Shown: one piece after another, positions 1 to 63,420 of the stretch
Numbering within the stretch: the first letter of the stretch is position 1
Layout of the letters: the number at the start of each line of letters is the position of its first letter
Source of the DNA: Obrimoposthia wandeli
Lineage: Eukaryota
DNA: 64,000 nucleotides
Assembly: GCA_977020255.1 (NCBI GenBank)
Contig: CDROCS010004434.1
Location: forward strand, 62,001 to 126,000
Direction of reading: 5' to 3'
Translations under genes and position numbers: made by a program
The notes under the pieces: generated by a model
Seen by the model: only the letters and a program-made list of their open reading frames with translations
Told to the model about the DNA's origin: nothing
Database searches by the model: none

Positions 1-30
1 GAGAAGGAAAAGTTCAAGAGAGGCATCTTA

Positions 31-470
31 ATGATAAGATGGCCTAAAGTGAGCTACAGTGAAATTCCACAAGCAGAGGAAAAAGACAAAAAAGATAATT
101 CCAGAAGAATTCTGAAATCTAGGATATCCAATGAGAATCCCAATGCTCCACCACAAGTAGCAGTAACATTGAACGGAAGAGAATATCTTGCCGAAGTTGA
201 TACCGGATCAGCAGTATCAGTACTGAGTAACGAAATCTAGTACCAAAAAGAATTAAGAGAAGTCTGTCCTAGAAACCAGAAATTTGTAAAAGTGAATGGT
301 CCAGATGTAGTGTCGACAGGAAAACTGAAATGTCCATTGAATATAGATGGAAGAGCATTAAAGTTAAATGCTAGAATATTCACAGATTGCGGTAGTCCAG
401 TCCTGATTGGGATGGACGTAATACGAATGTTTGAAGGAATAATTATACTACCAAACAACAAGAATTATAA
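31..470 (+). pseudogene. Retroviral-type aspartic protease, copy 1 (one in-frame TAG at 238-240)
   Basis: LAEVDTGSAVSVLS active-site motif. ORFs 31..240 and 292..747 share a frame, continuing to the C-terminal motif VLIGMDVI. Confidence 0.85.
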
Positions 471-682
471 GAATGACAGTTCAGTGAGAGAGATGAAAAT
501 GTTGAGAGGACATATAGTCGAAAAGGAAAAATGCACTACGTTCCGTATGGGAAGTTCGTACCCAGACAAAAAACAGGAAAGCGCTAGCAAAGTCGATACT
601 TCACTACAAAAATGTAAATTTCGGACCACAAGATACGACGAGGAGAAAAATAACATATGTAAATCTGTCAGAAAGGGATCCC

Positions 683-1700
683 ATGAGATTCGAGAGAAAG
701 AGACGAAATATATTAGAACAGTACTATTCAAAAGGAATGGCACGTAAAATGGCAAGATCAGGTTTAGAAATGTTAAACGCGACAAGCAGTTATGGTCATG
801 AGGAAGTCGTACGATGCGTATGGTGTAGAGTAAAGTTTAGAGAATGGGAACAGAATGAAAACCCAATGAGACGTCATAAAAGAGATGCACCAAATTGTCC
901 ATTTCTTTTGAAACTGAAAACGTCAAACGTACCAGAAATCCAAACGGAAAAAGCACCCGATTTCGATTACAGTGACGGGATTCCAAAAGGAGAATCAGCT
1001 CTAATAACAGGTAGAGTAATAACGAATAGTCGAATTGAAGATATATTCGAAGTTATGCGAGAAGTGAACGAATGTGACGAACAGTATCGAGAAATAACTT
1101 TCGAAGACCCAAGACTTAAAAATTGGCAAAAAGGGACTTTTTGCTATAAAAAAGGATGGTAAAGACGTAATTAAATGCCACAAGTGTAAAAAGGAACGGA
1201 ATTATCGACAGATACACTCTTGAGCTACCTAACAAAATTTTACATCATGAATTTTGCGAATTTTGTACTTTTAAAAACAAAATAAAGCAAAAAGAACAGA
1301 AAACCGAATGTATAATCGAATACCAAATCACACGGAAAGAGATTTTGGCTCAACAAGACACACCGGTAGTGTCATTCGTGAGAAGATTATATCCAAAAGA
1401 AGCAGAAAGAATCAGAGAATTGGTAGAATTAAAAATAAAAACTACGCGAAACGGATACGGATCGATTTTTGAATTACTGCGAGATAAAGACGACAGTACA
1501 ATTGAAACAAAAGAGAAAGAGTACATAAATGAACTGGAATACGTACTAGAAGATCCGTGATGCGCAGTTTGTGGTCAACAAAATAGAAGTTGCCTTTCTA
1601 CCATGCGGACATGTAAGAACATGTCGGAGATGTGCGAATGAAATGGTATCATGTCCGATTTGTCGAAGAATAATAGATCGACAAGTGAGAAACATTAGAT
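683..1700 (+). pseudogene. Inhibitor-of-apoptosis (IAP) module inside Pol: BIR1, degenerate BIR2, C-terminal RING
   Basis: BIR1 CVWC-x16-H-x6-C has exact BIR zinc spacing. A second BIR-like DVIKCHKC...LHHEFC spans frameshifts at ~1150-1270. IAP-type RING reads CAVC.VNKIEVAFLPCGHVRTCRRCANEMVSCPICR at 1561-1670, after a TGA at 1558-1560 and a 1-nt frameshift. Confidence 0.88.
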
Positions 1701-2506
1701 TTCACTATCCAAATATAGGAAGTGGACGGACAGAGTGTAATAATTTGATAAATACAATATACCATATGGGAAATATAAATGGAGCACAGCGACCAGCAGC
1801 TATCATTAGAGTAAATAATTTAAGAGTAAAAGCCTTAATTGATACAGGTGCTGTAGCCTCGATAGTAAGTGAAGACTGTTTGACAGAAGAACAGAAACGA
1901 ACAATGGCAGAACCAGATGAATTCTTGGTATCGGTCAATGGAGACCCTGTTAAAGTGACGGGAATATTACCATGTACATTTATAATTGGACGTAATACGA
2001 TCACTATACCAGTTAGAATCATGAAAGAATGTCCTGAACCTACAATTTTGGGAATGGATGTATTATCACAACTCAAAGGGATAAGTATTGATTTACAAGA
2101 TCCAAGATTGAAGGATAGCACATCAAACAGACAAATAAACCAAATTGATGTAATTATAGAGAATCCTATAAAAATCGGTAAAAGATCGCAATTTCTCATT
2201 CAAGGTCACACATTATCAGAAGATAAAGGACCAGTTGTGTTCGAACCATCACGAGATTTCATAGAGAAATACGAATTACCAGTTGTGAGTACAGTATGCC
2301 TGATCGAAAACCACAAAATACCAGTTAGACTGATGAATACAACCAACAATGACATCCTATTATACAGAGGAATGAGGTTGGGAAAGATAGCACAGATGGA
2401 GAATTCCACTGTATGCGCTATGAAACTCGATAAAGATACGAATGATTACGAAGAAATAGTAATCCAATCAGAAAGACTGACAACTAGAAAAGAAACAATT
2501 ACTTGA
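1571..2506 (+). CDS. Pol fragment: IAP RING fused in frame to aspartic protease copy 2 and the pre-RT beta-rich linker
   Basis: One ORF contains the RING, ALIDTGAVASIVS, PTILGMDVL and the IPVRLMN...LYRGMRLG segment common between PR and RT in Gypsy elements. Confidence 0.85.
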   Translation: MVNKIEVAFLPCGHVRTCRRCANEMVSCPICRRIIDRQVRNIRFHYPNIGSGRTECNNLINTIYHMGNINGAQRPAAIIRVNNLRVKALIDTGAVASIVSEDCLTEEQKRTMAEPDEFLVSVNGDPVKVTGILPCTFIIGRNTITIPVRIMKECPEPTILGMDVLSQLKGISIDLQDPRLKDSTSNRQINQIDVIIENPIKIGKRSQFLIQGHTLSEDKGPVVFEPSRDFIEKYELPVVSTVCLIENHKIPVRLMNTTNNDILLYRGMRLGKIAQMENSTVCAMKLDKDTNDYEEIVIQSERLTTRKETIT

Positions 2507-2529
2507 TCTAATACATAAATTTCCGAAAG

Positions 2530-3980
2530 TAATTGCAAAAATCCATATGACATAGGAGAAACACCTGTCATAAAACATACAATACCACTGACAGAAGACA
2601 AAGTAGTCAGAAGAAGACCATATCGAGTACCATTACAGTTACAAGATGAAGTAAAAAGTCAGATAGAAGATATGTCTAAAACAGGAGTAATTAGACCGAG
2701 TTTTTCAACGCCATTCTCAGCACCTCTGTGGTGCTGGTGTGTAAAAAAGAAGGATGGGAAAATGAGATTCTGTATAGATTTCGAGAGAACTGAACAAGAT
2801 CACAAGAAAAGATGTGTATCCATTACCTAGAATCGAAGAGATGCTCGATAAATTGGGTAATTCAGATTATTTTACGACATTGATTTGCAGAGTGGATACT
2901 GGCAAATCGAGATAGAGGAGTGAAGAGGATAAACACAAACAGCCTTTTCCTGCGGAGATGGATTATACGAATGCGAAAAAAGATGCCATTCGGACTGACA
3001 GGAGCTCCAGCAACATTTTCACGTTGCATGAATTTTGGCCTCACTTGCATCAGTGTGCAAACACAGATGGTTTATATCGATGACATAATAATATTTTCGA
3101 AAACGTTCGAAGAACATTTAAAAAATCTTGAAGTTGTATTTAAAAGACTGGAAAACGCTAAATTAAAAAGTAAAACCTACAAAATGCGTAAGTGCTAAAG
3201 AGCGAGTAACATTTTTAGGACATATAGTATCGAAAGAAGGCATTCGACCTGATCCAGCAAAGATCGAGAAAGTAAAAGCGCATTTAGCACCAAAGACTGT
3301 TAAGGAGATACAGCAGTTTTTTAGGTCTTGCGAATTACTATAGACGATTTGTTGAACATTTTTCAGATATAGCAACACCATTGAGAAAGTTGACGAGAAA
3401 AGATGAGAAGTTCATATGGGGAGAAGAAGCCCAACAAGCGTTCGAGCATTTAAAAGAAAGACTGATAAAAGCACCAATATTAGCGTTTCCAGATATAAAC
3501 CGACAATTCATACTCATGACAGATGCAAGTAACTATGCTGTAGGAGCAGTATTGGGACAAGAGGATGACGAAGGAAGAGAACACGTCATCGCGTATGCGA
3601 GTAGAGGATTAAACAGAGCCGAAAAGAGGATACTCTGTTATCGAAAAGGAAATGTCTAGCCATAGTGTATTCATGTAGACAGTACAGACACTATTTGCTA
3701 GGACAAAAAGTATTCCGGCCTGTATACAGATCACAAACCACTACAGTTCTTGTATAAACATAGAGATGAGATGAGTAGATTAAACAGATGGTTTCTAAAA
3801 TTGGCCGAATTCGATCTAGAAATCCGTTATAGAACCGGAAAGTCGAATGGCAACGCAGATTGTTTATCGAGATTGACAAATGTAGACGAGAAAGGAAACA
3901 TAATTCCAGAAGAAGATAAAACCAATGACCAAAAAGGAGAAGCAAATCTACTGACGATTTTGCTAAAGACGGTAAAATAG
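2530..3980 (+). pseudogene. Reverse transcriptase and RNase H, frameshifted
   Basis: Motifs RRPYRVP, MPFGLTGAPATFSR, YIDDIIIFS, LMTDASNYAVGAVL and NADCLSR are spread over several frames. Confidence 0.92.
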
Positions 3981-4099
3981 ACAAAGAGATCATCAAAGAA
4001 CAGAAAAAGAAGATGAAGAACTGAGTCTAATCAAAGAATTGTTGGTGAAAGGAGATCTAAACGATGAAATGACGAAAAATACTCGATAAAAGAAGGAAT

Positions 4100-5300
4100 C
4101 TTGTATATTGTCAATAATGTCGGAAAGATAGTAGTAGTAATTCCGAAGTCATTGGAAAACAGCAGTGATGATCCAGTATCACGACGGAACACTAGGAGGT
4201 TTACATCTGTCAGGGCGAAAGACAATAGCCAGAATCAAAGAGAAGTACCATTGGGATGGTATGGAAGACGACATAAAACAATGGTGTAAACAATGTAAAG
4301 TATGTTTAACCAGAAAAGACACCGGAACTCGTACTAAAGTTCCGTTGAAACCAATGCCAGTTCCCTTGGCACCAATGGAATTCACAGCGATGGATATATT
4401 GGGACCATTGAGAGAATCAAGTAAAGGAAACAAGTATGTCATAGTATTTACGGATTACATGACGAGATGGGTAGAAGCATATCCCATGCAGAACCAGAAA
4501 GCTGAAACAATAGCGCAAATCTTAGTGGAAGAGATAATATTTCGATACGGAGTGCCTAGAAAGTTGTTAACGGATCAAGGTAAGAACTTCACTGGAGAAG
4601 TCATAAAAGCAGTATTGAAGATATCTGGAATTATGAAGTTACAAACTTCACCATATCATCCACAGACAGATGAATCGGTGGAAAGGTTTAATAAAACTTT
4701 ATGTATGATGGTGACAATCCTATTGCTCAGATAAGCAAGAGGATTGGATAAATATTTACCTTCATGTTTATATGCTTACAGGAATTAGTTCGAGAGGCGA
4801 CAGGTCACACACCATTCTATCTGATGTATCTCAGACAGAACAATATGCCAATGGATCTGGGACTGAGCCAACATCTCAGTACCTAGAAACTGAACAATAC
4901 ATTGTCGTCATGAAGGAAAGATTACAAGATGCTTGGACCAAAGCCGGATTGAAGTTGAAATTCAATCAAGAAGGTTACAAGGAACAATACGACAAAAAGC
5001 AAAACCGCATGAATTTAGAGCCGAGATCAAGTGATGATATTTTATCCAGTCATCGAACCAGGTCTATCGTTTAAACTTCATAGACCATATAAAGGACCAT
5101 ACAAGGTGATCCAGACAACCTCAACAAATTTGAAAGTAATCAACGAAGAGAATCGGAACAAGGAACCGATGATTGTACATGCAAATCGATGCAAATTAGT
5201 ACCAAATAAAGATAATGCGTCACGATATGAGTTAAGATCACAGAAATCGAAATCGAATACCAATACCATTAAACTTACACTATTAATGAATGGTAAGTGA
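4100..5300 (+). pseudogene. Gypsy integrase (HHCC zinc finger, DDE core, GPY/F tail), frameshifted
   Basis: HDGTLGGLH...CKQC, AMDILGP, LTDQGKNF, VERFNKTL and RPYKGPY are all present. Confidence 0.92.
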
Positions 5301-5354
5301 TCGGAACTACATAAACATGATGACGAGTGGTGGCGAAGAAAACCAGAGAACGGT

Positions 5355-8300
5355 ATGCTCAGAATGAAGTACCAAGAGGAAAAGGAAGTAATCCGACACA
5401 TCGCACCACAGGAGATATTAGAAGAAGACGAAGAGATAATAGTCGTTTTCGAAAAAACACAACCAACAGACGTAGCTAAAGAAGTCATTGTGAAAGATGC
5501 ACTAACAAACGAATTTCTGTGCGAACTTAGAGTGTCATACTACGACGGAAATACACTAGTCGCAGCACTTTATCAAAATTCCAATGTGTTTACGACTGAG
5601 AAAGTGATAATCGAAATCACATTGACACCAAACATAGTTGCATGGCAGAACTATGACAGTACTGAAGCAGGACTAGCCAGTCAGGAAGAGAAGGAACCGG
5701 CCGGTGGTCACATACTGCATGGTACACCAAAAAGACTCAAACAAGAATACCACGATGTAATAATGGTATTACGTAATTCACATGGGGAAAGAGATATCAT
5801 GAGAGTCCATTTAATCGACGCTGACACTGAAAAGATAATTTGTCAGATGGACACCAAATATTTTGATGGAAAGACAATTGTATGTTGTATACCAGAATCT
5901 CACCGGTTAGACACAGATCAAACGGAAGTATCTGTAAGGTTGAGCGTAATAGAAGGATTCCATTCGCCAACTTATCCGGAAGTGACTAACAATAAAATCA
6001 TCAAAGCAACGGCAGAGTTACGCATTGACAGCGGATACCGGAAGTGGGAAGCTAAAAATAAAAAGCCACAAAGAATCAATATGATCCGAGAACAAGTAAC
6101 AACTTCAAACCAGCCAAAATATCATGCTGAAATAGTATCATCCGCGCCAAGTGTAATTACATCGATAAACGACGAAATTATAATTTTACTAAAAAATCGA
6201 TGGCCGTCATCAACCGAGATACGAGTAAACTTAATTAATTATGCGAAGACACCGATATCTAAGCTGAATGTTACCTATTTTGATGGATTGTCCATCATGG
6301 GTAAATTGGAAACAATTGTCATGTGCTATGGAGCACAGTTCCAAGTTGAGATACTTAAAGATAGTGTAATACCGTATCCGATTCACAAATACGAAGGGGA
6401 AATCAACCCAATTATTCTAACCCCTTCATTAATTTCAGTTCAAACAGACATACCAGAATACCCTTCGAGCGAGTCTAGTGAAGACAGCGAACCGGAAAGT
6501 AACGATACAGAATCAACAGAATCCGAAGATAACATAATAGAGCGATTCGGAAGAACCATTGAGGTTGAATTCGCTAAAGAGAGCAGAAAAAGACAAAACA
6601 TAGAATTCGTGAAACAGAATATACAAGAAAGACGAATTAAATCTGCAGAAGAGACCGAGTCGGAAGAAGACTCAACAAAGAAACAAACATCAGAGACAAA
6701 GATGAATATCTCTCCAGCAATACGAATGCTGAGAGGAAAGAAATTGGCGAAACTATCCAACATCGACGAACAAATAGAGAAGAGATTAGAAAGACTAAAA
6801 CTTGAAGAGTCAGAATTAATGCCACCAATGAGTGAGATCATTCCAGGTAAGTTATACCTCGGAAATGTGGAGGATGCAACAGATGAAAAGAAACTGTTGG
6901 AACAAGGGATAACATATGTGATCAACGTTACAATGAATCACAAATCGCAATATCAGACGATCAGAGCTATGACATTAAGAGTAAAAGACTCAATGGACGC
7001 TAATCTTCTCGAATGGTTTGTAGAAACAAACGAAATACTTCACAGAGAACTCCGAAACCGAGGAAAAGTGTTAGTACATTGTCAGAAAGGAATTTCTCGA
7101 TCAGCAACCCTAGTATTAGCATATCTAATAAAGACTAGACGAATGCAGGTACTAGAAGCGTTAAAATACCTACAGGAGAGAAGAAGTATTGCAAACCCAA
7201 ATCTTAATTTTTTGGGACAGTTGGCAAATTACCAACTTCTGTTGCAAGAACAAAGACGGATGGACGACATTCCTGAGGATCCAAAGGAAAAGAATTTCCT
7301 CCAAGCATTATCATTGACCGGGTTATTTTTAGCCGGAGTCGATAAAATCACACAGATAATGCCAAAAGTATTTTTATGTCATCCAGGAGATATAGATACT
7401 GCTGGATTAAAGTTCCATAGTATCAACCGAGTAATCAACATTGTTGAAGTCGGAAACGAGATAATTAGTCTGTGTCAAAATACTGAAGATGACACCATTC
7501 GATACATACATGCTTCCAATCGAGAGATAAACGATGCACAACAACATCTGACGAAATTGACTCAAACCATCCAAGCTGAAGTCACAGAAGGAAACGGCGT
7601 TCTGATATATCAGAAAAAAGGTACAATGTTAGCGCCTACCATAGGTGTATCCTTGTTGGTAGAGTACCATGGTCATACGCCAGAAGAAGCGATGGTCTAC
7701 ATCAAACAGAATAGACCAAATACGGAATTCAAACCGTTACTCGTTCGAGAAATAGAGAAATACACCGAAAAGAGGAAACAACAACGAGAAACAAATGAAG
7801 CTACAACAACAGTGCCCAGCTTTCAATACCAAAGATTGCTAGCGATAGGCTTGTTAAGTTGTTTAATGCCGATAACGGGAGCACAGGAGATAGGCTCCAA
7901 CCACGGAAATAGTTCCTGGTTCAACGAAATCCACAATTACACCATAAAATACCATACACCGGCACTGATGATGTTATTAGTATTGTTAGGACTAATTGAT
8001 GTATGGATCATCCGAATATGTCTTCGATCTATGAGAACCGACAGTAAAAGATTTCAGTTTGTAAAGATGAAAAGACCAAATGGACCAACGAACAAAGTGC
8101 TTGTGTATCTAGACGAAAGGATCGAAGACAACATAGTAAATGAAGCGATATTTTACCCACAAAACAGAATACTGAATCAATTCCGAATAGATTACGAAGC
8201 TGACCGACAGCGCACACTTGACCGAATATCAACAACATTCGCCGGATGCAAGCGAAGAAAACGAGTTGTAAAGGAAATACAAAAAGATGCTGATACAAAA

Positions 8301-10496
8301 GGACCAACGTATATATTCGATGGCGATGTCATCAAAACACGTGAGTATGGAAGTAAGAGAGTGATAATTGAAACGATGGAAGGACATAGAACATGCTTGT
8401 CCGCAAAAAATGGATTCGGAAAGTTGACGATACAAGGTAAACCAGTACAGTTGATTATCGGACGAGATGGAATCGAGGAGATGTCAAAACAACGACAGAC
8501 AACAAAACGAACCAATCAGAAACAGATATCTCTCAAACGATTGATAATTAAAACCCTTTGCAAAAGGTCAGTCAAGGCTCTGTGCACCGTTGCACAAGGA
8601 TTGATCTATGGAGTAGTAATTGGATTGGTACTGCAAGCCATGCCAACCAGTAAAGCCGAATTGATGACACTATCCGAATATAATTTACATTTGAGAAATC
8701 TAGACAACACCCTAGAAATAATCAAGACATCCCACAGTAGAGCCGTGATGATCATGTGTGTAAAAGGATGTCCAGGACGAATGTGTATAGTCCCAGCGAC
8801 CGAAATGATAACACTTAATGGACATTATGGAGTTAGTGTTGTCACATGTGAAGACTACATATTTGGACAAACTAAAATAGTGCTTCTCAGTGACATGTCC
8901 AACCAAAGTGCACACAAATTTAGAATATTAACCATCAAGAGTAAAGGAATACCAGCAGTACGTTATGGTATTCTAGAATTGGTTAATCCAATACTGGCAC
9001 TGATCATTGGATTTATAATATTAATATTACTCATTTTGTTTTGTTGTTCAAAGATAGAGTCGAGATCAAAAAAGAAACGTCATGACCTCGCAAGACGAAC
9101 AGGTCAAATGAACTTACAAAAATTCAACACAATTATACCAAGACCACCATTTCTAGATGAACCAGCACCAGAGTACCAGCCAACGATATATGAACATATT
9201 GAGGAAAGACCGTACTATATGAGTAATTTGACTTGTTTCATTGAAGTTCCTGAGTTTAGGAATCGAACGATCATAGGAATCATGCTGATCGTACAAATCA
9301 CCACTACCAAGGCTAGTTATGAGATCATGATCAGTAAATGGAGACAAGACGTAATACGGGCAATATACATAGAAATTCCCTTACTAAAAACAAATCACGT
9401 AGTAGACATTCATCTACAGACGTCAGCAACTGACAATATCGATCAGAAATTGTATGTCATCCGACAGGTCAGAATAAAAATCCACCAAAATACACCCGTT
9501 TACAATTTAATATTATTGTATCATGAAAGAGTGTTATACCTACGGATAACAATATCAAAGAGGAAGCGGATTATCCAAAGTATCCGAACAAAGTCATTAA
9601 TATTACCTAGAGATGAGCGCATCTGGAAAATTGTCGACAGGATTATGATCACAGGTAGACGACGTAAAGCCGTATGGAATTCCGTTAGGATATTTTTCAG
9701 ATTGCTAGAAACTGACAGCGTGACAGTAATGAGTCCCAACCCAGATGGCGTAATCAGATTCGAAATCCAAAGCCAAATGTTAGTACCACATTTTAACACA
9801 GAATGTCTGTGTAATCGAATTGCCAGTAATTCTACAGAGACCTCGACCATAATCATGATAATAACAGGTGAAATATTCTACATAACTCTAAGATACCAGA
9901 ACCGTCGATTTCGTAGATACGGTATAAGTATCAAACCCAGGAAAATCATTCCCAGAAGACCAATCCTAGTCAAAAAGAAGGCAAAGGTAATCGAAAGTAA
10001 ACGCCATTCCAAAAAACCGACAGTGATCAGAACAAAGACAGAAGCGAAAGAAAAAGAGCTAAATCCCAGAAACCAAAGTACAATTATTAAGAAGACAAGA
10101 GTGAGGGGAACGATCCCACTAGATCCCAAACATCATTTCCAATCCAAAATAATAATACCTGTTCCATCAGAAACAAAACACCCAAATCCCCGAATTTTTA
10201 GAAAATCGGACATAATACATGGAAACCGATCAAAACCCATGGAAATGTCATTCGAACCAACAAACAACAAAATGAAGTATGATTATAAATCATCAGACAG
10301 CGGAATAACAGCGGTCAATGCCCTAATTGGAATGGCCGTAGTGTCAACAGCAGTGGTTTTATTGACAATCGTGCGTAAAAGGCAGTCACCAGTATGCCCA
10401 GGAATACGACGAAAATGCGAAGGATTGCGATGCTGTGACACACCCATCATGGAGGAAGTGGAATTAGACTTACCTCCGCCTCCCATCAAGATATGA
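5355..10496 (+). CDS. 1713-aa cargo polyprotein: three beta-rich repeats, dual-specificity phosphatase, pseudo-phosphatase, serial signal-peptide/TM (env-like) region
   Basis: Uninterrupted ORF. DUSP fold at ~6828-7245 (LYLGN, VHCQKGISRSATLVLAYL, NPNLNFLGQL). Second DUSP-like copy at ~7345-7770 lacks the catalytic Cys (LIYQKKGTMLA). Hydrophobic segments at ~7830-7885, 7960-8025, 8570-8660, 8990-9050, 9265-9315 and 10310-10375. Confidence 0.85.
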   Translation: MLRMKYQEEKEVIRHIAPQEILEEDEEIIVVFEKTQPTDVAKEVIVKDALTNEFLCELRVSYYDGNTLVAALYQNSNVFTTEKVIIEITLTPNIVAWQNYDSTEAGLASQEEKEPAGGHILHGTPKRLKQEYHDVIMVLRNSHGERDIMRVHLIDADTEKIICQMDTKYFDGKTIVCCIPESHRLDTDQTEVSVRLSVIEGFHSPTYPEVTNNKIIKATAELRIDSGYRKWEAKNKKPQRINMIREQVTTSNQPKYHAEIVSSAPSVITSINDEIIILLKNRWPSSTEIRVNLINYAKTPISKLNVTYFDGLSIMGKLETIVMCYGAQFQVEILKDSVIPYPIHKYEGEINPIILTPSLISVQTDIPEYPSSESSEDSEPESNDTESTESEDNIIERFGRTIEVEFAKESRKRQNIEFVKQNIQERRIKSAEETESEEDSTKKQTSETKMNISPAIRMLRGKKLAKLSNIDEQIEKRLERLKLEESELMPPMSEIIPGKLYLGNVEDATDEKKLLEQGITYVINVTMNHKSQYQTIRAMTLRVKDSMDANLLEWFVETNEILHRELRNRGKVLVHCQKGISRSATLVLAYLIKTRRMQVLEALKYLQERRSIANPNLNFLGQLANYQLLLQEQRRMDDIPEDPKEKNFLQALSLTGLFLAGVDKITQIMPKVFLCHPGDIDTAGLKFHSINRVINIVEVGNEIISLCQNTEDDTIRYIHASNREINDAQQHLTKLTQTIQAEVTEGNGVLIYQKKGTMLAPTIGVSLLVEYHGHTPEEAMVYIKQNRPNTEFKPLLVREIEKYTEKRKQQRETNEATTTVPSFQYQRLLAIGLLSCLMPITGAQEIGSNHGNSSWFNEIHNYTIKYHTPALMMLLVLLGLIDVWIIRICLRSMRTDSKRFQFVKMKRPNGPTNKVLVYLDERIEDNIVNEAIFYPQNRILNQFRIDYEADRQRTLDRISTTFAGCKRRKRVVKEIQKDADTKGPTYIFDGDVIKTREYGSKRVIIETMEGHRTCLSAKNGFGKLTIQGKPVQLIIGRDGIEEMSKQRQTTKRTNQKQISLKRLIIKTLCKRSVKALCTVAQGLIYGVVIGLVLQAMPTSKAELMTLSEYNLHLRNLDNTLEIIKTSHSRAVMIMCVKGCPGRMCIVPATEMITLNGHYGVSVVTCEDYIFGQTKIVLLSDMSNQSAHKFRILTIKSKGIPAVRYGILELVNPILALIIGFIILILLILFCCSKIESRSKKKRHDLARRTGQMNLQKFNTIIPRPPFLDEPAPEYQPTIYEHIEERPYYMSNLTCFIEVPEFRNRTIIGIMLIVQITTTKASYEIMISKWRQDVIRAIYIEIPLLKTNHVVDIHLQTSATDNIDQKLYVIRQVRIKIHQNTPVYNLILLYHERVLYLRITISKRKRIIQSIRTKSLILPRDERIWKIVDRIMITGRRRKAVWNSVRIFFRLLETDSVTVMSPNPDGVIRFEIQSQMLVPHFNTECLCNRIASNSTETSTIIMIITGEIFYITLRYQNRRFRRYGISIKPRKIIPRRPILVKKKAKVIESKRHSKKPTVIRTKTEAKEKELNPRNQSTIIKKTRVRGTIPLDPKHHFQSKIIIPVPSETKHPNPRIFRKSDIIHGNRSKPMEMSFEPTNNKMKYDYKSSDSGITAVNALIGMAVVSTAVVLLTIVRKRQSPVCPGIRRKCEGLRCCDTPIMEEVELDLPPPPIKI

Positions 10497-10620: not shown

Positions 10621-10920
10621 ATGGCCGAAGAATGCCCAATATGTTTGGAAGATCTAACCGAACGAAGAACAAGACCCGAAACCTGCAACCATTTACACCA
10701 CGAGGAATGTTTATCGACATGGATCAGAACTTATGGACAGTTCGGACACCCAACATACCCTCGTTGCCCTGTATGCAGAAGACAATTCGCAAGATTCGTC
10801 ATGTTAGAACCCAACCAAGAGGATGTATATGTACAGGTGGTATTCTGTTGGAAGAATTTCGGAGAGTGTTGGTGTTATTACTGTTTGTCAGATCGACAAA
10901 ATCAGACCACTTTTGTGTAA
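10621..10920 (+). CDS. Small RING-H2 putative E3 ligase, copy 1, with C-terminal CWK..CWCxxC motif
   Basis: CPIC...CNHLHHEEC...W...CPVC pattern. TATATAAAA at ~10577 and TTTAG immediately 5' of the ATG. Confidence 0.8.
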   Translation: MAEECPICLEDLTERRTRPETCNHLHHEECLSTWIRTYGQFGHPTYPRCPVCRRQFARFVMLEPNQEDVYVQVVFCWKNFGECWCYYCLSDRQNQTTFV

Positions 10921-10980: not shown

Positions 10981-11310
10981 ATGTCTGGAGAATGTTCCAT
11001 CTGCTACGAGAGCATCGTGGACTTCTACACCAAGCCCAACAACTGCGACCACCTTTTCCACGTCGAATGCCTCGAGACGTGGATCCCCATCGCAAACAGC
11101 AACAATCCCCTCGACTTCCCAACCTGCCCGATGTGCAGAGCGACTCTTCTCAGTACACTACGTGTACAACCAAGACAGCCTCCAAGCAGTGGTACCCATC
11201 GTACACTGCTGGAAAACCATCTGCGATTGCTGGTGCTCGTTCTGCGTGGAGGAGCGAAGCACAGGCCAGCCCAATCCCCAACAATAATCGAAGGTAACTT
11301 TCTGACTTGA
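10981..11310 (+). CDS. Small RING-H2 putative E3 ligase, copy 2; C-terminal Cys motif is frameshifted
   Basis: CSIC...CDHLFHVEC...W...CPMC pattern. An alternative frame at ~11190-11260 reads VVPIVHCWKTICDCWCSFC, matching the copy-1 tail. Confidence 0.78.
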   Translation: MSGECSICYESIVDFYTKPNNCDHLFHVECLETWIPIANSNNPLDFPTCPMCRATLLSTLRVQPRQPPSSGTHRTLLENHLRLLVLVLRGGAKHRPAQSPTIIEGNFLT

Positions 11311-11627
11311 ACGTGACATCATGAACTACCCTGTGTATCGCATACCGCGATAAATTAGCTACCATAATTGTAATCATAATTATATAATCTTGTGAACTGT
11401 AAATTGACCATTACCATTTTTATGTATGATGTTTAACTGAAATTGTAATTATTATACTGAATTTCTAAAAAAGACAATTTTTATGCTTAGTGTGAATGCG
11501 TAAACATGCCTAAAATCTAAACAAAACTCGGTAGGATTAGATAACTAAGGATTCATTTTGAAATAAAATTTAAATTAACGATGAGAACGGTGAACCCCAA
11601 ATTGAAAGGAGTTATTTTCTCATGCAG

Positions 11628-12112
11628 ATGAAGTGCGCTGTATGCATGGAGAAAATTTGGGCGGTATCAGCATCCCCTGTCGGCTGCCGCCACAAATTTC
11701 ACGAATCCTGCCTATATACTTGGGCCCGACTTCGACCCGAAGGACATGTCAATTTTTGCCTTTCGCGGAATGGACACTACAGTGTCGAGGGCGCCACAAG
11801 GGCACCCATTCGCTCACCAGCTGTATTGGTGGCGAGCACTGCCATTGCCCCGACTGTATCGCACGCCGTCGCGATGCAAAACTCGCCCTCCGCGAGAAAT
11901 ACCGGTCAACTCGCGACCCCCGCTCATGGCAGCGTGGCCGTCAAATATGGCTCGGAAATCGCGGAATACACGGGCGATATACTACCATTTTCCACCCGAG
12001 TCAACACCTCACCATGCGCCAGCAAATGTTACTATACAATGGCGGCCCACCATCGTATCCGGAACTACCACTGGAGCAGGTCTTGCTGTTCCTGAAGGAC
12101 AGGAACGGTTGA
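11628..12112 (+). pseudogene. RING-H2 protein, copy 3, frameshifted
   Basis: MKCAVCMEK...GCRHKFHESCLYTW, then a frameshift near 11755 into the frame with HCHCPDC that ends at 12112. Confidence 0.7.
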
Positions 12113-12692
12113 CAGATCTCAAACATTCTTGTGACATATCCCAGACAATCTTGTGACATATCCCACACCCTCAATAATTTTGTGTGTAAATTTTTAGTTG
12201 TGTATAAATAATAATGTATGGTTTGAGACTTGCTCCAAATTATATATTATGTTTCCCACTAAAAACCGGAATTTTGGAAAATTTTTTTTTGGGCATGTTT
12301 GTTGAAGTTGAATGATTGATTTTGTAGGGATGAACCTAAAATCAACAGCCAAAGGCTTATTTAAGTAAAATCGATACGTTCCGGGGACGTAACTTTTTTG
12401 GAACCCCCGAGGTATGTTAAGGTCGAGAAATAAGAAAATTAAATATTTTAGTCGATTAAATACTAAAATAAAAATCCTTGAAAGCAAGGTTGAAAATTAA
12501 ATTAAAATATTAATTTTAGTTTTAAAAATTAAAATTAGTGGAATTTAGGGTAAAAATTAGGAGGACCACGAAGGTCGTGTATAATGTGAAAATGTATAAA
12601 AGTTTAAAGTTAATTAACCAAAAGGACAAAAATTAATTAAGGAGAAAATCAGACAATTAAGAATTAATTCAGAAAAGAGAAGTTAATTAAAC

Positions 12693-13006
12693 ACGTCAAT
12701 CAAGGATCCAAAGGTAAGCACATTTTCGTGCAGTAAAAAACTAAAATCTTATTTTGCAGCCGTCATTGATTGACAGGAGATACCAGTTCTCCTACTTCCA
12801 CAATTGTTCTTATTTTGCAGCCGTCATTGATTGACAAGAGATACTAGTTCTCCTACTTCCACAGTTGTCAGCCGTCAATTGATTGACGTCCAGTGCCTCT
12901 ATATAAGGCAGTATCTAGAAACCCACAATCACAACTACAAGTCGACTGGAAAAAAAGAAGAAGCAAGTAGACAGAAGACAATCCCCTCGACCACGAATCG
13001 GTAAGT
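12693..13006 (+). promoter_or_regulatory. LTR promoter: four TGATTGAC motifs, TATA box, ATG-less leader and splice donor
   Basis: TGATTGAC at 12767, 12828 and 12880, inverted at 12693-12702. TATATAA at 12900. G|GTAAGT at 13000/13001. Confidence 0.6.
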
Positions 13007-13050
13007 GGTGATTTGGGACAGAGGTAAAATTAAAATTATTTAGATTGCTG

Positions 13051-13600
13051 AAAAAGTGAACCAATATTCGAGAACCAATAGTTTGAAATATCATTGACCA
13101 ATATTTGAAATATAAAAAGTGAACCAATATTCGAGAACCAATAATTGAAATATCATTGACCAATATTTGAAATATAAAAAGTGAACCAATATTCGAGAAC
13201 CAATAGTTTGAAATATCATTGACCAATATTTGAAATATAAAAAGTGAACCAATATTCGAGAACCAATAATTGAAATATCATTGACCAATATTTGAAATAT
13301 AAAAAGTGAACCAATATTCGAGAACCAATAGTTTGAAATATCATTGACCAATATTTGAAATATAAAAAGTGAACCAATATTCGAGAACCAATAATTGAAA
13401 TATCATTGACCAATATTTGAAATATAAAAAGTGAACCAATATTCGAGAACCAATAGTTGAAATATCATTGACCAATATTTGAAATATAAAAAGTGAACCA
13501 ATATTCGAGAACCAATAATTGAAATATCATTGACCAATATTTGAAATATAAAGTGAACCAATATTCGAGAACCAATAGTTGAAATATCATTGACCAATAA
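13051..13600 (+). repeat. Tandem array of ~9 copies of a 62/63-bp unit, each with three CCAAT motifs
   Basis: Anchor GTGAACC at 13056, 13119, 13181, 13244, 13306, 13369, 13431, 13493 and 13553. Confidence 0.95.
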
Positions 13601-13763
13601 CGCGAAAGAAGTCGAAAGTCACAGTGACTTTGAGGACGATTCCGCCAGACTTACAATTTATCTCTGGAAAGAAGACGATCCCACAAGTTCGTCAAAACCA
13701 CCTACGGACCCTACATCGGACAGCATACTAGTCGCAGCGTATTGGTAAGCCAACCGACTAGAG

Positions 13764-14200
13764 CATTCATTGCCCCTAGTTGGCAATTAGGATACTGTCA
13801 TTACCCCTTGTTGGTAATTCTACATTTTAAATTAATACACAAATTCATTGCCCCTAGCTGGCAATTAGGACAACTCGACTCTTTAACACAATCATTGCCC
13901 CTAGTTGGTAATTAAGATCGGACATTTATTCATTGTCCCCAGCGACAATTAGGAATCCTACCCAGACGTTTTACCTGTAAGATTCATTGTCCCTAGCTGA
14001 CAATTAGGTTCATTCATTGCCCCTAGTTGGCAATTCGGATAAATACTCATTGTCCCTAGTAGACAATTCGGTAAGACTCATTGTCCCTAGCTGACAATTC
14101 GGTTCGTTCATTGTCCGTAGTTGACAATTAGGAGTAAGTTTTCATTGTCATCTTGACAATTAGTTTTTTAGGAGATCCATTGTCACAGTAGACAATTCGG
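13764..14200 (+). repeat. Array of 12 short inverted repeats, ATTRYC-N5-7-GRYAAT, with variable spacers
   Basis: Arm variants ATTGCC/GGCAAT, ATTGTC/GACAAT and ATTACC/GGTAAT all keep pairing. Loop is mostly CCTAGYW. Confidence 0.9.
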
Positions 14201-57560: not shown

Positions 57561-58478
57561 TGATAAGTTACAAAAAATAACTAAATTGTATTTTCATATA
57601 ATTGAGTCTTTGTAATGATAAAGTCTTTTCTTCTTCAGAATAAATGTGTTAAAAGGATAATCAAAATAATACTGTTTTAAACTTATTCAAATTATTGTGT
57701 GTAATTGTTATGGTTCCACTAATAATATATAGTCTGTAGAGACATGCAGCAGGAAATCAGCGCTGGAGAAATGTCGGAGACAGAGAAATTGTGTCTTCTT
57801 TTGGCGACGCTTTTTCTAGTGCATAGATAAGAGGAGAAAGGGAGCGGTCATGGAGAAAACCACTTGTTATCTCCGGGGCAGGGAGACAGACTGCGGCATC
57901 TGTCAAAGGTCGAGGATAAATGGCAGCTTTTGGCAACTCGAACTGGGCTGACCGCGTATTTGGCATTTGTTGCTGAAGTAGACCATCTATACCGCTCACA
58001 CACCCATGCACAACAGGCAGCATAGTGAGAGAGAGGGATTGAAAATCAATAGGGCACAGCTACCAATCTAGATACAAGGGAGATTGAGACGGGAAGAGAT
58101 TACGGCTGCTGGTTGTCGAGGATAAACGATTGTAAGGATAATCCAGGCAGTCTGATCTGACGATGTCGGGAAAGCGGGGAACTGCATTGGGTAGTACGCA
58201 CACGAGTTGGATGGAAATAGATGCAGTTTGGGTTGGTTGAAGTGGCAGCATTTAAGAGTGGACACACCAGTCGACTGGGATTACCGAGAAGGATGATGAG
58301 GAAGGAATGTGGAGGAGAGGCCGCTGCAATCCGGGGAAGGCAGTCCGGGAAGGTGTGGAAGATGGGTGACTCTGCACAACCTGGGCGACTGTGTGCAGGT
58401 AAGTGCCCTTTATTTTTTATCTTTTATCTCTGACTTCGCGGGCATTTTGCCCACCGCGAAACCAGAGACAAATCCGCC

Positions 58479-58528
58479 GTCCCCCTGACGAGCCCGGCAG
58501 GGCGAAACCGGTTAAGCCGGTCGGGGAC
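58479..58528 (+). ncRNA. Minimal type I hammerhead ribozyme; predicted GUC cleavage after 58522
   Basis: Stem I GTCCCC/GGGGAC, core CTGACGA, stem II GCCC-GGCA-GGGC, GAAA, stem III ACCGG-TTAAG-CCGGT. All core nucleotides are present. Confidence 0.88.
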
Positions 58529-58855
58529 TGAACTAAATAAACTGATTATTAAATGCCAAAGTGCATTTCACTTACCCTAAAATATTTCCCTAATTAAGGA
58601 AATTTCTCTCGTTATTTCTTAATTAAGAAATAATTTAAATTTTTAAATTGTATTTTTATTTTTTAAAATTGTAATCCTAACAATCCTCCGGCTAATAAAA
58701 GTTCTGGCCTCAGAATTCAAATTTCCAGTAAAACACAAATAAAAATCAATTTTTCACAATTAAATTACTTAAAAATTGATAAAACTTTTAAACATTGAAA
58801 ATATTCTTGATAAAAATAGTAATACTTATTAATGAAGCAATAATAATACCTTAGT

Positions 58856-60013
58856 TTATACGTTGTCTACAATAAAACATTCATCGGAGTCGGAGTCGGA
58901 GTCTGTTATCTCACTTGGGATACTCAACAAATCGTTTAGACGAAATTCCTCCACCAGTCTATCTCTACGTTTTTCAAAAACTCGCTTGATATTCTTGGTA
59001 TCCTCTAAACATGTGTGAATCTTCTTCTGTGTTTCTTCTCCAAAATATTTTGATATCATTGTCTTTAATCCTATTTTTGGATGGTTATGGCCAAGTTCTG
59101 TTCTTATTTCAGTTGATGCACCCAGGTCCACGATTCTAGCAAAATGTTGTTTTTCTAGTCTTAATACTTTCAAATCATTTTCTAATCCTGCACCTATCAA
59201 AACATTTCCTACTAATATTGATTGTGCTTTTTCAATGACTTCCTCTGCATCAGTTTTTCCTGTCAAAGATTTTTCGGTGAAACCAGTTATAAACTTAACA
59301 TAATTTCGTATTCTTTCTCTTGGCGTTACTATTTCATGTAATACAATCTGATCTTTTTCATCTATGATTGTAATGCTAGCCAATGTTTGTTTTTTGTCTA
59401 CCGTGATGGCCATTTCGCAATCCATGAAATATTTAATTGGAGTTTTTGATATATTTGCATTTTCTAAAAACATTATTTTATTCGTTTTCCAGATTAACTC
59501 TATAAAAAATGTATTTCTTCTGGGACTAAATTTTAGGAGATATTCGCTTCTTAATTCTTTTTTATCAATGGTATAAGAATGATTTTGTAAAAACATGTTA
59601 CTTAATTTCTTTTCTTGTTTACTCATTAAATGGGCTCTTCCTTCTGCCACATGAATTTCTATTTCTTCTACGTCTTGTAAATCTCCTACTAATTCTGATA
59701 AATTTATTCTTACATTTTTGGTGTGGTGCATAGTAAAAATTACACTTTTTCTGCTAGTCTTTGTAATTTTTAATTTATTAGGAATATGCGTTTGGTCTTG
59801 GAATATCTGTTTTCCTTCTCCATTTTTAAAATATCTATTGCTATACTGTCTTAATCTTCTATATAGGAATTTCGCAAAAATGTTCATTGTTGGAGTGCAT
59901 AATGGTTCTTCCTCTAAACTATTGGTAAGGTCTACGACTGATGGTGAAAAATCGTCCAAACAACTTTCCCCTACAACTCGGATCCATTTCCGTTTGTTTG
60001 TTGAGAACTCCAT
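58856..60013 (-). CDS. DEDDh 3'-5' exonuclease (REX4/ISG20-like) with unknown N-terminal domain
   Basis: ExoI FMDCEM, ITGFT, ExoII IGAGLENDLKVL and ExoIII HTCLEDT. Intact 385-aa ORF. Confidence 0.85.
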   Translation of the reverse strand: MEFSTNKRKWIRVVGESCLDDFSPSVVDLTNSLEEEPLCTPTMNIFAKFLYRRLRQYSNRYFKNGEGKQIFQDQTHIPNKLKITKTSRKSVIFTMHHTKNVRINLSELVGDLQDVEEIEIHVAEGRAHLMSKQEKKLSNMFLQNHSYTIDKKELRSEYLLKFSPRRNTFFIELIWKTNKIMFLENANISKTPIKYFMDCEMAITVDKKQTLASITIIDEKDQIVLHEIVTPRERIRNYVKFITGFTEKSLTGKTDAEEVIEKAQSILVGNVLIGAGLENDLKVLRLEKQHFARIVDLGASTEIRTELGHNHPKIGLKTMISKYFGEETQKKIHTCLEDTKNIKRVFEKRRDRLVEEFRLNDLLSIPSEITDSDSDSDECFIVDNV

Positions 60014-60179
60014 CTGTTACATAATTCAGTCGGAGTAAAAATAGAATAATGAAAAAATAAATAATAAAGAAAAATTTTCATGCAATTGTAGAATATGTAG
60101 TCCTAATTTTTGTACAACAGATTTATTATATATTGATCAAGTTATCATTCTGGCCAAATTAGCCCAATTCGGATTCATT

Positions 60180-60524
60180 TCAGGAATCATGTCCATAAAT
60201 AAAGTTTCGATTCCTGTTGGGAATAATGAGTCTGTCCATTAAATGTTGGGTCTGTGACTGCAGAGCTAAAATTACTCTCCGTTGAGAACTGATTCTATGA
60301 TAAAGATCATCAATTTTATGTGAATCAGATTTGATTATTTGTTCAAATTCATTCATTTCGATATTTTTACTGAGATTTTCTTCCACCAATCTTTTAATAT
60401 TCGATTTCAGTTTGTCATTTTGTTTTATCGTTTTTATAAAATAATCATCATGATGTTGTTTAATGTCTTGGATTTTTCTTTTTAATTTATGGCATTGACT
60501 GCAGACTTGAAATTTTTTGTTCAT
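60180..60524 (-). CDS. Small coiled-coil accessory protein with N-terminal CxxC
   Basis: CSQC followed by heptad-like L/I periodicity. Acceptor-like TAATTTAG lies 2 nt before the ATG. Confidence 0.5.
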   Translation of the reverse strand: MNKKFQVCSQCHKLKRKIQDIKQHHDDYFIKTIKQNDKLKSNIKRLVEENLSKNIEMNEFEQIIKSDSHKIDDLYHRISSQRRVILALQSQTQHLMDRLIIPNRNRNFIYGHDS

Positions 60525-60695
60525 TTCTAAATTATAGTTAATATATATTGTCGGGTCTTTATCCCGATATTTGGTTTTTTCTAAATTAAGTTTTTTACAC
60601 TTTTACAAATATCTATACACACATACATACTCATCCTCATCTAATATTTATTTGAATATTCTGTTTTAATTAACTCATAAAAATAATATATCTGT

Positions 60696-62228
60696 TTATT
60701 GTCTATTGATTTCGACAACTGTATTCATTGATACGTTTGATGAATTTAAAGAACTTGGTATTATTGATGTTATAAATGGTCCTGGAGGTTTATAAAATCT
60801 AATTTGACGAGTTGGCTTTGAATTTTTCTGATGTTTTCTCATTTTTATTTTCCATAATATTTTTATGGCAAGTATCAATATTTCAATTATTACTGTTGCC
60901 ATTATGATTTCTATTTCCCTTTTATGGTGTGAGTATTTTTGTTTATTATTATACATTTTATAGCTTGAATTTGTGGATTTGTACGATATAATTTTTGTTG
61001 TTTTTAAAATAAATTTAATTTTTTTAATTTTTATGGTTCCAATCTGACCTGTAGTTTTATAAGCTTCTGTTGTGAATTTTTTTATATGTAATATCTGTTT
61101 TGTACTTATTTCTTTGGTATATTTGTCAACTTTAATTACTGACCAATGACCACAATAAATTGTAGGTTGATATAATTTGGATATCTTATTTCCTAAAATT
61201 GTTAACTTTGTTAGGTTTTTAATAGTTTCAAACTGTTGCCCCCATTGTCTATACATTAATGGTTTGTTAGTGACTACGCATTCTCTATTATTCATGATTA
61301 ATTTGTTCGGATATCTAATATTTTTTATGGTTAAATTTGTTTTAGTTTGGGCTCTTTCCAATTGTTTTTCTGTATCTTTCCAAAAATGTGAATTTGGTCC
61401 TCTATATCTAATTCTTATGACTGCCTTATCCAAATCATCTATTTCAAGTTGAATTTTCCATTTTATCATGATACTGTATTTGGTTATATGTTTTGCCATT
61501 GTCTTCAAGACTGATGCCAAGTACATATGAGTTTCTATAATTCTTTCATAAAGTATTTAATTTGTTAAATTTGATGTAACTCTTATTTGGTATTGTGTTT
61601 CTGTTCTTAAAAATGGTATTGTGTATTTTTGTGATTTTATTCCGGAAATAATTATGTTTTGCCTTCTGTCTGTTTGTGTGATTTGTATATTTCCTGTTTT
61701 GTTTGTAAAAAGTGAAATTTTTAATTTTATTGATGTGATTTTAGGTATTATTGTAATTAAACCGAAATATTTTATTAGATGTGTTGTTGAGTCGTATTTA
61801 TTTACTAATTTATTATCATTTATGTCTGTTGTACTTACTTTATGTAAATTGTTATTTGTTATATAATATATTATAAGTAATATCATTATTTTTATGATTT
61901 CTTTTATCGATATTTTTATTGTATTTTTTATCTGATGATTTTTATTAATCTTATTTTGTTTCTGTGAGTTTTTTATTGTTAACATTTGTAAAACAGTATT
62001 ATCGTTAGTTGATCTCAGATTATATCTATGACTTTTTACTTTTGTATTTTCCTCAGGTACTTGACGACATCTATTTATATGTGCTCTTATTTCTTTTGAT
62101 CTAGGGTCATTGTCAAGTTTAGCGGTTATGTTAGTTCCGTTGGTACTAATGACTGTGTATGGTCCTTTGTATGGTTTTGATAGTTTGTGTGACAGACCTA
62201 CGCTGATTTGTGGATTGTGAATCATCAC
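60696..62228 (-). CDS. Integrase C-terminal tail extended into an env-like accessory region; one in-frame TAA at 61557-61559
   Basis: ORFs 61557..62228 and 60696..61526 share a frame, linked by ILYERIIETH. Hydrophobic segments IIKIMILLIIYYI and IIMATVIIEILILAIKILW. Confidence 0.6.
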
Positions 62229-63420
62229 TTTACTTCCATTTTTATGTTTGATGGTTTAGTTCTTCTATCATAGTATTCTTTGTAGTTTTCTTGTATGTTT
62301 TTTACAAATAATTTGGCTTTTTCAAAAGCTAGTTTTATTCTCTCTCTAATTTCTATTTTGTATTCTGGTATTTCTAAGTATTGAGTGGTGGGTTGTAATA
62401 ATGTTAAATCAATAGGCATCTGTGGGTCTCTGAGGAACATAAGGTAAAAAGGTGTTTCTCCTGTTGATGCATGTACTGATGTTCTATATGCAAAAAGGCA
62501 TGGAGGTATGTGTAAATCCCAATCTGTTTGGTTGTTGTTAGTGTATGATGCCATCATATCTTCGAGGGTTCTATTAAATCGTTCCACTAATCCATCAGTT
62601 TGAGGGTGATATGGTGTTGTGTTAATCTTTTTTATATGAAATATTTCAGCTATAGATGCTACCACATTATTTATGAATTCAGGACCTTTGTCAGTTAAAA
62701 ACTTTCGGGGTGCACCGAAAGTAAAAATTATTTTTTCGACTAAAACCTTCGCGATGGTTTCAGCCTTGTGATCTTGTGTTGGGAAAGCCTCTGGTGTTTT
62801 TGTAAAATAGTCGGAAAATACTATTATGTAGCGATTTCCTCGGGGTGTTTCAGGTAATGGTCCCATTACATCCATGGAAACGATTTCCATGGGGGCTGAT
62901 GGATAAGGTATTGGTTTTAAAGGAACTTTAGTGGTACGTAACGTGTTTTTTCATTTAAGGCATATTTTGCATGTTTTGCACCAATTTTTTACATCTTCTT
63001 TCATGTCGATCCAATAATATTTTAAGTTTAACCTTGAAAATGTCTTTTTTGATGATAAATGTCCACCTAGTGCTCCATTATGATATTGAAGGAGTAGTTG
63101 ACATTGTATGTCTTTCGGGATTACTAGTGAGTATAAATTTTTATCGTTTAAATAATATAATATTTCATTACTATATTTATATCGTGTTTCGTGAATTTTT
63201 AAGTGTTTCCTTAATTTTTCATCTGTTGGAATTTCGTCTATGCTGATGTATTTAGCTACCTGTTGGATTTCAGTATCTTTACTTTGAAGTTCTGTAATTA
63301 CTTTTTCGTCGTATCTAGCTTTTATTATTGTAAAAAGATTAGATGCTGAATCGTCAGTATTTAACATATTTATATCATCTCTTATTCTAGATAAGCAATC
63401 TGCATTTGCATTCGATTTTC
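62225..63420 (-). pseudogene. Integrase zinc finger and DDE core of element 2, frameshifted
   Basis: ORFs 62951..63367 and 62225..62890 carry the HHCC and D-D-E motifs. Confidence 0.92.

Follow-up and report, generated by a model that had tools for sequence, protein, structure and literature searches.

A giant, putatively Burro-like Gypsy element with an in-frame IAP and phosphatase pair, and relatives of this cargo in Mavericks

The window analysed here, 64,000 nucleotides of Obrimoposthia wandeli DNA (G000:C4434:62001-126000 within a 1.35-Gb assembly), holds at its left end part of a Gypsy long terminal repeat (LTR) retroelement that we call element 1 and at its right end part of a smaller relative, element 2. 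Element 1 encodes a single giant polyprotein in which an inhibitor of apoptosis (IAP) lies between two proteases and an intact phosphatase is followed by a pseudo-phosphatase. The explanation that we prefer, with a probability of roughly 0.6, is that element 1 is a Burro-like, Env-carrying Gypsy element whose own proteases would release the IAP and both phosphatase domains to stop host cell death while the element multiplies, and whose cargo probably came from a pool shared with Mavericks.

The polyprotein of element 1

Element 1 measures 23,982 bases from LTR to LTR. It has the TG...CA LTR ends, the target duplication and the order protease, reverse transcriptase (RT), RNase H, integrase of a Gypsy element. 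All parts were located by six-frame translation and Pfam scans, and are listed here in window coordinates except for the 5' LTR.

G000:C4434:52700-54842, upstream of the window: 5' LTR, TG...CA ends
157..420 (+): aspartic protease 1, Pfam E 4e-8
662..1714 (+): IAP with BIR, degenerate second BIR, UBA-like helices and RING, frameshifted in the window copy
1787..2413 (+): aspartic protease 2 and a conserved 100-residue domain, Pfam E 1.5e-8
2534..5180 (+): RT, RNase H and integrase, with many frameshifts in the window copy
5355..6377 (+): three repeats of about 100 residues each, 25% identity between repeats, predicted IPT/TIG-like Ig fold
6825..7247 (+): dual-specificity phosphatase, intact Cys-x5-Arg, MAP-kinase-phosphatase-like, Pfam DSPc E 1e-40
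7380..7787 (+): pseudo-phosphatase, DSPc fold without the catalytic motif, Pfam E 6e-7
7830..10496 (+): polyprotein tail of alternating signal-like and transmembrane segments, from hydropathy
10621..10920 (+): RING-H2 open reading frame (ORF) 1, Pfam E 5e-10
10981..11310 (+): RING-H2 ORF 2, Pfam E 4e-9
11622..12095 (+): RING-H2 ORF 3, Pfam E 5e-5, with a frameshift before the last cysteine pair in the window copy
12415..14681 (+): 3' LTR, TG...CA, with a 62/125-bp internal array; 4-bp target duplication

One natural copy of element 1 is a single open frame of 5,478 codons from stop to stop, and three further copies have single open frames of 4,822-5,295 codons; all four were picked for frame length. 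The encoded order is Gag (with one CCHC knuckle), a ubiquitin-like domain, a weakly matched BCL-2-like region, Env, protease 1, IAP, protease 2, a domain in the dUTPase position, RT, RNase H, integrase, the three repeats, phosphatase, pseudo-phosphatase and the membrane-segment tail. The polyprotein begins about 6 kb upstream of the window, and the three RING-H2 ORFs stand 3' of the giant frame. A sequence-only reading of the window had named an IAP, an intact and a pseudo dual-specificity phosphatase, three RING-H2 proteins and membrane proteins, and the Pfam scans and hydropathy bear out every one of these parts. It had taken the IAP, the phosphatases and the membrane segments for separate proteins, whereas they are parts of one polyprotein: the separate IAP and a 1,713-residue protein proved, in other copies, to be pieces of the giant frame. 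The window copy itself differs from one long-frame copy by 39 frameshifting indels, compared with five or fewer in 15 of 18 other copies that were partly chosen for long frames. Because its two LTRs are 99.8% identical, we suspect that these frameshifts are assembly errors, a point on which assembly contigs aligned over pol do not discriminate.

In other copies the IAP shares its frame with the proteases on either side, and both proteases retain their catalytic Asp in all 22 copies covered. The first BIR (Pfam E 6e-11) and an IAP-type RING (E 9e-12) are clear, and the second BIR is marginal (E 0.08). The domain order is that of cIAP1, which is also the best PDB match (E 1.5e-15); the UBA segment is weak. 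A search of 5.8 billion proteins with the IAP matched one IAP of 300 residues. The phosphatase is closest to DUSP10 (E 2e-24, among the best 60 of 76 PDB matches). Alignment to DUSP10 revealed both the His-Cys-x5-Arg loop and the upstream general-acid Asp, and the Cys and Arg are kept in 24 of 24 copies; the domain fits the active dual-specificity class and is predicted to be an enzyme. When the phosphatase pair was searched against the same 5.8 billion proteins, only four weak matches had polyprotein lengths (three fungal and one fungal-like), and viral contigs searched for relatives of the pair yielded none. The cysteine pattern of RING-H2 ORF 3 is complete in other copies.

The remaining domains are assigned with varying firmness. 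An Env-like fusion glycoprotein (PF24664, E 8e-47 and 2e-39) stands in frame between Gag and protease in both element 1 and element 2; the sequence-only reading could not see it, and a search by sequence for a solved relative found none. The ubiquitin-like domain upstream of the BCL-2-like region has a Pfam ubiquitin match of E 0.003 (under the cut-off), and nearly all of its 54 PDB matches are ubiquitin-fold proteins (best single-domain match about 3e-4 to 1e-3). The BCL-2-like region just before Env gave a structure model with a pLDDT of just 38, and comparisons of the region with the Atlas and the PDB were uninformative. The 100-residue domain between protease 2 and RT matched dUTPase in one of three aligned members (E 0.14) and had no PDB match. 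For the Ig-like repeats, Atlas TIG clusters scored 0.89-0.90, with low recognition. A repeat model (pLDDT 53) reached Z 6-7 to plexin IPT and NF-kB dimerisation domains, which may reflect just a common arrangement; Foldseek gave no match at E 0.001 and a PDB profile search was uninformative. A Pfam scan of the polyprotein tail was blank and no family was found for it. Rfam and tRNA scans were empty. A look-up of RNA data that contain the cargo region listed none, which speaks neither for nor against transcription. The tandem array within the LTR varies among copies; three other copies show spacings of roughly 18, 34 and 36 bp. A primer-binding site (L033:2850-2870) resembles what we take to be the 3' end of elongator tRNA-Met, and a stretch at the LTR end (window about 14614-14625) presumably resembles its continuation, possibly making a two-part primer site.

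Element 1 is abundant. With the phosphatase domain as query, 150 of 150 scored candidates matched at 99-100% identity, giving at least 150 near-identical copies; the 16,047 first-look candidates are not a copy number. Element 1 covered 5.1% of 400 kb, being found in 4 of 40 sampled 10-kb stretches (L250-L289, at set places in contigs already known to carry one of these elements). There are probably thousands of copies, a rough estimate from these stretches, and assembly contigs aligned on the pol region likewise indicate very high abundance. When divergent sister families were sought by way of Pfam domains, the searches led back to element 1.

Selection on the cargo and its predicted role

Constraint was measured as omega for variants that occur in more than one copy, with a correction for the mutation spectrum, in 23 copies of element 1 (19 found through the phosphatase and 4 through Env; the window copy was left out). 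Most of the cargo is under purifying selection, with omega of 0.07-0.28 and p below 1e-3 for most cargo domains. Values were 0.09 for the phosphatase and 0.09 for the pseudo-phosphatase, 0.07 for the IAP RING, 0.28 for the IAP middle, 0.10 for the BCL-2-like region, 0.13 for the ubiquitin-like domain and 0.14 for the Ig-like repeats. For the backbone they were 0.24 (Env), 0.06 (RT), 0.02 (integrase) and 0.03 and 0 (proteases). When only the four copies found through Env were used, the two phosphatase domains had values of 0.17 and 0.20. The polyprotein tail ranged over 0.20-0.53 and was weakly constrained at its end (0.53), and RING-H2 ORFs 2 and 3 were under weak constraint (0.36 and 0.40).

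That the cargo is a passenger, picked up by chance and carried through each round of copying, is hardly credible in view of these values and of the conserved catalytic residues, and is contradicted for the phosphatases, the IAP RING, the Ig-like repeats and the element 2 nuclease described below. Alternative frames over the RING ORFs gave omega of 1.5-1.9 in three of four cases (0.63 in the fourth), which also speaks against it; the first BIR, the end of the tail and RING-H2 ORF 1 are weakly constrained, as it would predict. Equally, cargo inserted at this locus only was rejected, since 150 of 150 scored candidates match for the phosphatase and for the nuclease alike. Domestication of the family, with cargo that protects stem cells for the benefit of the host, would fit the toleration of so high a copy number. 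However, constraint is stronger on the variants that several copies share than on those confined to one copy, stop codons build up in individual copies, and the two LTRs of a copy match at up to 99.9%. Selection thus acts through transposition, and we consider domestication very improbable.

We propose that element 1 replicates by ordinary LTR retrotransposition, possibly with enveloped particles. One transcript would give one polyprotein, and the cargo would therefore be made one-to-one with Gag. Internal signal peptides, predicted from hydropathy, would thread Env and the tail proteins through the membrane of the endoplasmic reticulum, while the protease-to-phosphatase stretch would stay in the cytoplasm. 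The two proteases would free the IAP and the phosphatases. The IAP, perhaps together with the BCL-2-like domain, would block caspase activation, the phosphatase would switch off stress MAP kinases upstream of apoptosis, and the pseudo-phosphatase would bind substrates without cutting them. The RING-H2 proteins would ubiquitinate host restriction factors. Caspases, stress MAP kinases and restriction factors are thus the predicted targets of host manipulation. The first BIR (662-916), in which 21 columns vary between subfamilies and the zinc ligands are kept in 19 of 21 fully covered copies, is a candidate for a fast-changing host-contact surface.

Several results count against this explanation. 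Constraint is slight on the first BIR (omega 0.63, p 0.065) and on RING-H2 ORF 1 (0.57, p 0.045). Some 25 extra residues separate the IAP RING from the next likely cut, and RINGs of this type can be silenced by a C-terminal extension. Similar short motifs occur at many domain borders, a pattern chosen after looking, and the proposed cleavage-site motif was not enriched (7 versus 4.5 in shuffles). The BCL-2-like call is weak, with a Pfam E of 0.06 and a host-built profile that scores two other windows higher. Finally, purifying selection attests usefulness to the element and is not proof of action on the host.

The selection data are indeed as compatible with cargo that serves the element's own replication, in which the phosphatase, the RING ligases and the nuclease would act on Gag, particles or element RNA. 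Being fused to Gag-Pol, such cargo would be inside the particle, and 3'-end processing of element RNA has been proposed for DEDD ORFs in the accessible text of PMC5408684. Mavericks, however, replicate differently and yet keep relatives of both the IAP and the phosphatase. On general grounds, moreover, an IAP with BIR, UBA-like part and RING fits poorly with particle assembly, a process in which we know of no role for this type of protein. We regard replication-serving cargo as distinctly unlikely.

Relatives of the cargo in Mavericks and in element 2

Most frames found by a BIR search of the assembly stand alone and have 341 or 301 codons. In six of six surroundings read, these stand-alone IAP ORFs adjoin a packaging ATPase and a chromodomain integrase; the carriers of the related IAP and pseudo-phosphatase are Maverick/Polinton elements. 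Capsid genes of the IAP-bearing Mavericks are presumed from the look of their sequence. A protein-primed polymerase, terminal inverted repeats and a 6-bp duplication were demonstrated for the Maverick inserted in element 2, which lacks an IAP. The Maverick IAPs align end to end with that of element 1 at 34-37% identity and 157-169 bits, compared with 65 bits for the single public match and at most 20 for two short host BIR pieces. The alignment includes the stretch between BIR and RING (E 3e-13) and the last residues. A pseudo-phosphatase stands beside the IAP in three of three Mavericks of the 341 type and in none of three of the 301 type. It scores 67 bits against the element 1 phosphatase, 41 against the best PDB entry and at most 20 against 11 host-candidate pieces. 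In a phosphatase tree of 17 rows (two short pieces dropped, long branches, host rows mostly intron-cut), the four mobile rows form one group with support of 96/93. From these comparisons, element 1 and Mavericks of the same genome probably exchange genes predicted to keep the host cell alive.

The exchange is opposed by several observations. The active phosphatase of element 1 scores 74, 72 and 69 bits against host genes and 67 against the Maverick copy; being as close to host genes, it points to capture from the host first. Most host phosphatase rows in the tree are intron-cut pieces and its branches are long, and the best tree does not unite the phosphatase with the Maverick copies to the exclusion of the pseudo-domain. 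Among the matches listed, a search for host BIR-RING IAPs returned only Maverick-type frames. Because none was recovered, independent captures from one host gene have to be weighed: the cargo would control the host as proposed, and the retroelement and the Mavericks would each have acquired IAP and phosphatase from the host without exchange. The host phosphatase exon that is very close to the element 1 phosphatase (74 bits over 61 residues) and identities to the Maverick copies of only 31-37% favour such captures. They sit poorly with the whole-length IAP alignment and with a Maverick pseudo-phosphatase that scores 67 bits to the element 1 copy versus 8 to a full-length host phosphatase. We judge independent capture somewhat unlikely. 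A more detailed version of exchange is tentative, and we give it slightly less than an even chance: the retroelement and Mavericks would trade host-control genes directly, a Maverick-type IAP having been slotted between two proteases that excise it and a captured MAP-kinase phosphatase having passed between the classes, with a pseudo-enzyme arising twice. Element 1 would then be a complex invertebrate retrovirus with an anti-apoptotic and anti-signalling kit inside its particle-forming protein.

Element 2 combines the same Gag-Env-Pol backbone with a different 3' cassette. Its parts in the window are as follows.

58364..58682 (-): 3' LTR, start fixed and far end approximate, 89% to the LTR of another copy
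58856..60013 (-): DEDDh 3'-5' exonuclease ORF with conserved N-terminal domain, RNase_T E 1e-6, SDN1 E 2e-8
60180..60524 (-): coiled-coil-like ORF, weak Pfam matches only
60696..62255 (-): tail after integrase with signal-like segment, ectodomain and transmembrane segment, from hydropathy
62228..63420 (-): integrase and end of RNase H, remainder at G000:C4434:142898-146022 and beyond
63421..64000 (no strand): end of a 17.5-kb Maverick inserted in element 2, terminal inverted repeats, 6-bp target duplication at 63415-63420

The sequence-only reading had ended element 2 at 63420; there the Maverick splits it, and RT and Env lie beyond. Its list of a DEDDh exonuclease, coiled-coil and membrane proteins holds, the coiled-coil-like ORF with weak matches only. 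It had also called the two integrases very similar, and they are better described as related. Element 2 is a smaller sister family, with 54% identity in the integrase core, 46% from protease to integrase and 41% in Env; the integrase of a third, decayed Gypsy element with internal duplications (window 45700-51400, +) is 30% identical to that of element 1. Six other copies of element 2 were examined, of about 14-16 kb where both LTRs were located. After in-frame Gag and Env they encode Pol, then a tail of signal, ectodomain and membrane segments that stays in frame (with pol, in another copy), and finally the coiled-coil-like ORF and the nuclease. All 150 candidates scored with the DEDDh query matched it, in one subfamily at about 95% and another at about 78%, so that there are at least 150 copies. 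The nuclease is of the SDN1/ISG20 kind. Its catalytic set (Asp-Glu, Asp, His...Asp) is complete in the window copy, and the four of five catalytic residues that were tracked are kept in 12 of 12 distinct copies. Only 2 of 1,197 relatives (E 0.001) align over nearly its full length.

Cargo differs between the families and between subfamilies with near-identical integrases. The two element 2 subfamilies differ by an integrase dN of 0.03 and dS of 0.43 versus a DEDDh dS of 1.5, with omega of 0.07-0.09 for the nuclease, and in the second subfamily the position of the coiled-coil-like ORF holds an unlike sequence. In metagenomes three loci were found, one of them (L247:3-6448) a close relative with 59% integrase identity to element 1. 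Its integrase groups with element 1 (support 97/98; eight rows, one short). This relative carries a DEDDh relative (E 2e-8) that lacks the catalytic acids, an in-frame signal-ectodomain-membrane tail and a RING ORF that differs from those of element 1 and has a close host-like relative in G000 (41%). A single integrase clade of the DEDDh-bearing lineages was rejected on the same eight rows, one of them short (p-AU 0.012). The distribution of DEDDh is explained equally by loss of the nuclease in element 1 or by transfer. With at least 150 copies per family, mostly purifying selection, differences between families and subfamilies, and relatives in Mavericks, the idea of modular cargo is upheld. 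A diverged RING-H2 piece of the element 1 kind lies just beyond an element 2 LTR (L065:1779-2699).

Genomic surroundings and comparison with described elements

The window also contains a two-exon host eIF3d gene (51920-53709, +; Pfam E 4e-102 and 3e-64), a hAT-type transposase remnant (22113-23894, -) and a decayed Maverick remnant with ATPase and integrase pieces (38672-42646). Mavericks occur in great abundance: the shares of the sampled DNA covered by three queries are 11%, 5% and 2%, with possible overlap among them. The eIF3d protein is 78% identical to three proteins and 46-50% to those of named animals, including echinoderms. A multi-copy COX1 has AAA at sites where Asn is conserved, as in the flatworm/echinoderm code. 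From this code and the distance of eIF3d to echinoderms, the host appears to be a rhabditophoran flatworm. The assembly further includes many COX1 genes that are free of stops and look bacterial, and one that follows the general invertebrate code (for example contig C5352, L231), the latter presumably molluscan; these extra genes are likely to be contamination or prey.

Burro elements are giant planarian Gypsy-like LTR elements with in-frame Env, BIR, BCL-2, ubiquitin-like, MATH, ankyrin and dUTPase-like domains; the accessible text of PMC6431247 calls them possible proviruses and proposes that they meddle with apoptosis and ubiquitination. PMC11410931, PMC13238120 and PMC10175614 merely name Burro in their accessible text. 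Element 1 resembles Burro (GYPSM1) in its one ORF of about 5,000 residues (about 4,900-5,100 in Burro), its high copy number and its flatworm host. Both have Gag with a CCHC knuckle, a ubiquitin-like and (in element 1 tentatively) BCL-2-like region before an in-frame Env, a BIR, and protease, RT, RNase H and integrase. Element 1 is shorter, however, at 24 kb versus over 30 kb, and a Pfam scan along its frame gave no MATH or ankyrin match at E 0.01. As these mismatches concern size and two domains, we call element 1 only Burro-like, a likeness drawn from the published description of Burro, although it would work like Burro. The accessible text of PMC6431247 does not name for Burro two proteases around a full BIR-RING IAP, a phosphatase, pseudo-phosphatase, Ig-like repeats and membrane segments after the integrase, or three RING-H2 ORFs, and the word phosphatase is absent from it. 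The lead to Burro in the sequence-only reading was thus right in kind, and removes part of the novelty. As far as the architecture might already be catalogued, Env, BIR, BCL-2 and ubiquitin-like domains and the idea of host meddling are in print in the accessible text of PMC6431247, and DEDD nucleases in LTR elements in that of PMC5408684; the phosphatase pair and an IAP between proteases were not found there. In the literature searched we found no phosphatase in an LTR polyprotein (Repbase and the Burro supplements may list more domains), no IAP between two proteases (with the same proviso for the Burro supplements) and no sharing of IAP or phosphatase between LTR elements and Mavericks (adintovirus supplementary figures may hold more).

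The Vesta and Juno LTR elements of bdelloid rotifers share DEDDy, coiled-coil and membrane ORFs among retroelements (PMC5408684, accessible text). They resemble the present elements in having family-specific 3' ORFs, including DEDD nucleases, coiled-coil and transmembrane proteins, from an ORF pool common to retroelement types. In contrast, their nuclease is DEDDy and ours DEDDh of the SDN1/ISG20 kind, their Env is ORF3 and ours in frame, and the sharing here extends to a DNA-virus-like class. For adintoviruses and Mavericks, Bcl2 and IAP homologues are described among accessory genes (PMC8502044); its main text mentions neither a phosphatase nor a link to LTR elements, and its supplementary figures may hold more.

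The sequence-only reading had drawn its parallels from viruses. Baculoviruses carry IAPs, and poxviruses the VH1 phosphatase and RING ligases, activities of the same kinds as the element 1 cargo. The parallel holds at the level of activity and is otherwise loose, an analogy and not descent. A poxvirus origin of the phosphatase was rejected: the best 60 of 76 PDB matches include no poxvirus VH1, animal MAP-kinase phosphatases being closest, and the IAP is nearest cIAP1 among solved structures.

Large DNA viruses typically carry accessory genes against apoptosis and kinase signalling; here genes of these predicted kinds are under selection inside a young, abundant retroelement that makes up about 5% of the sampled host DNA. 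The published idea that Burro-like elements meddle with host cell death can now be turned into tests of individual domains. If true, gene sharing between elements that move through an RNA intermediate and DNA-virus-like elements would be a route by which retroviruses gain accessory genes.

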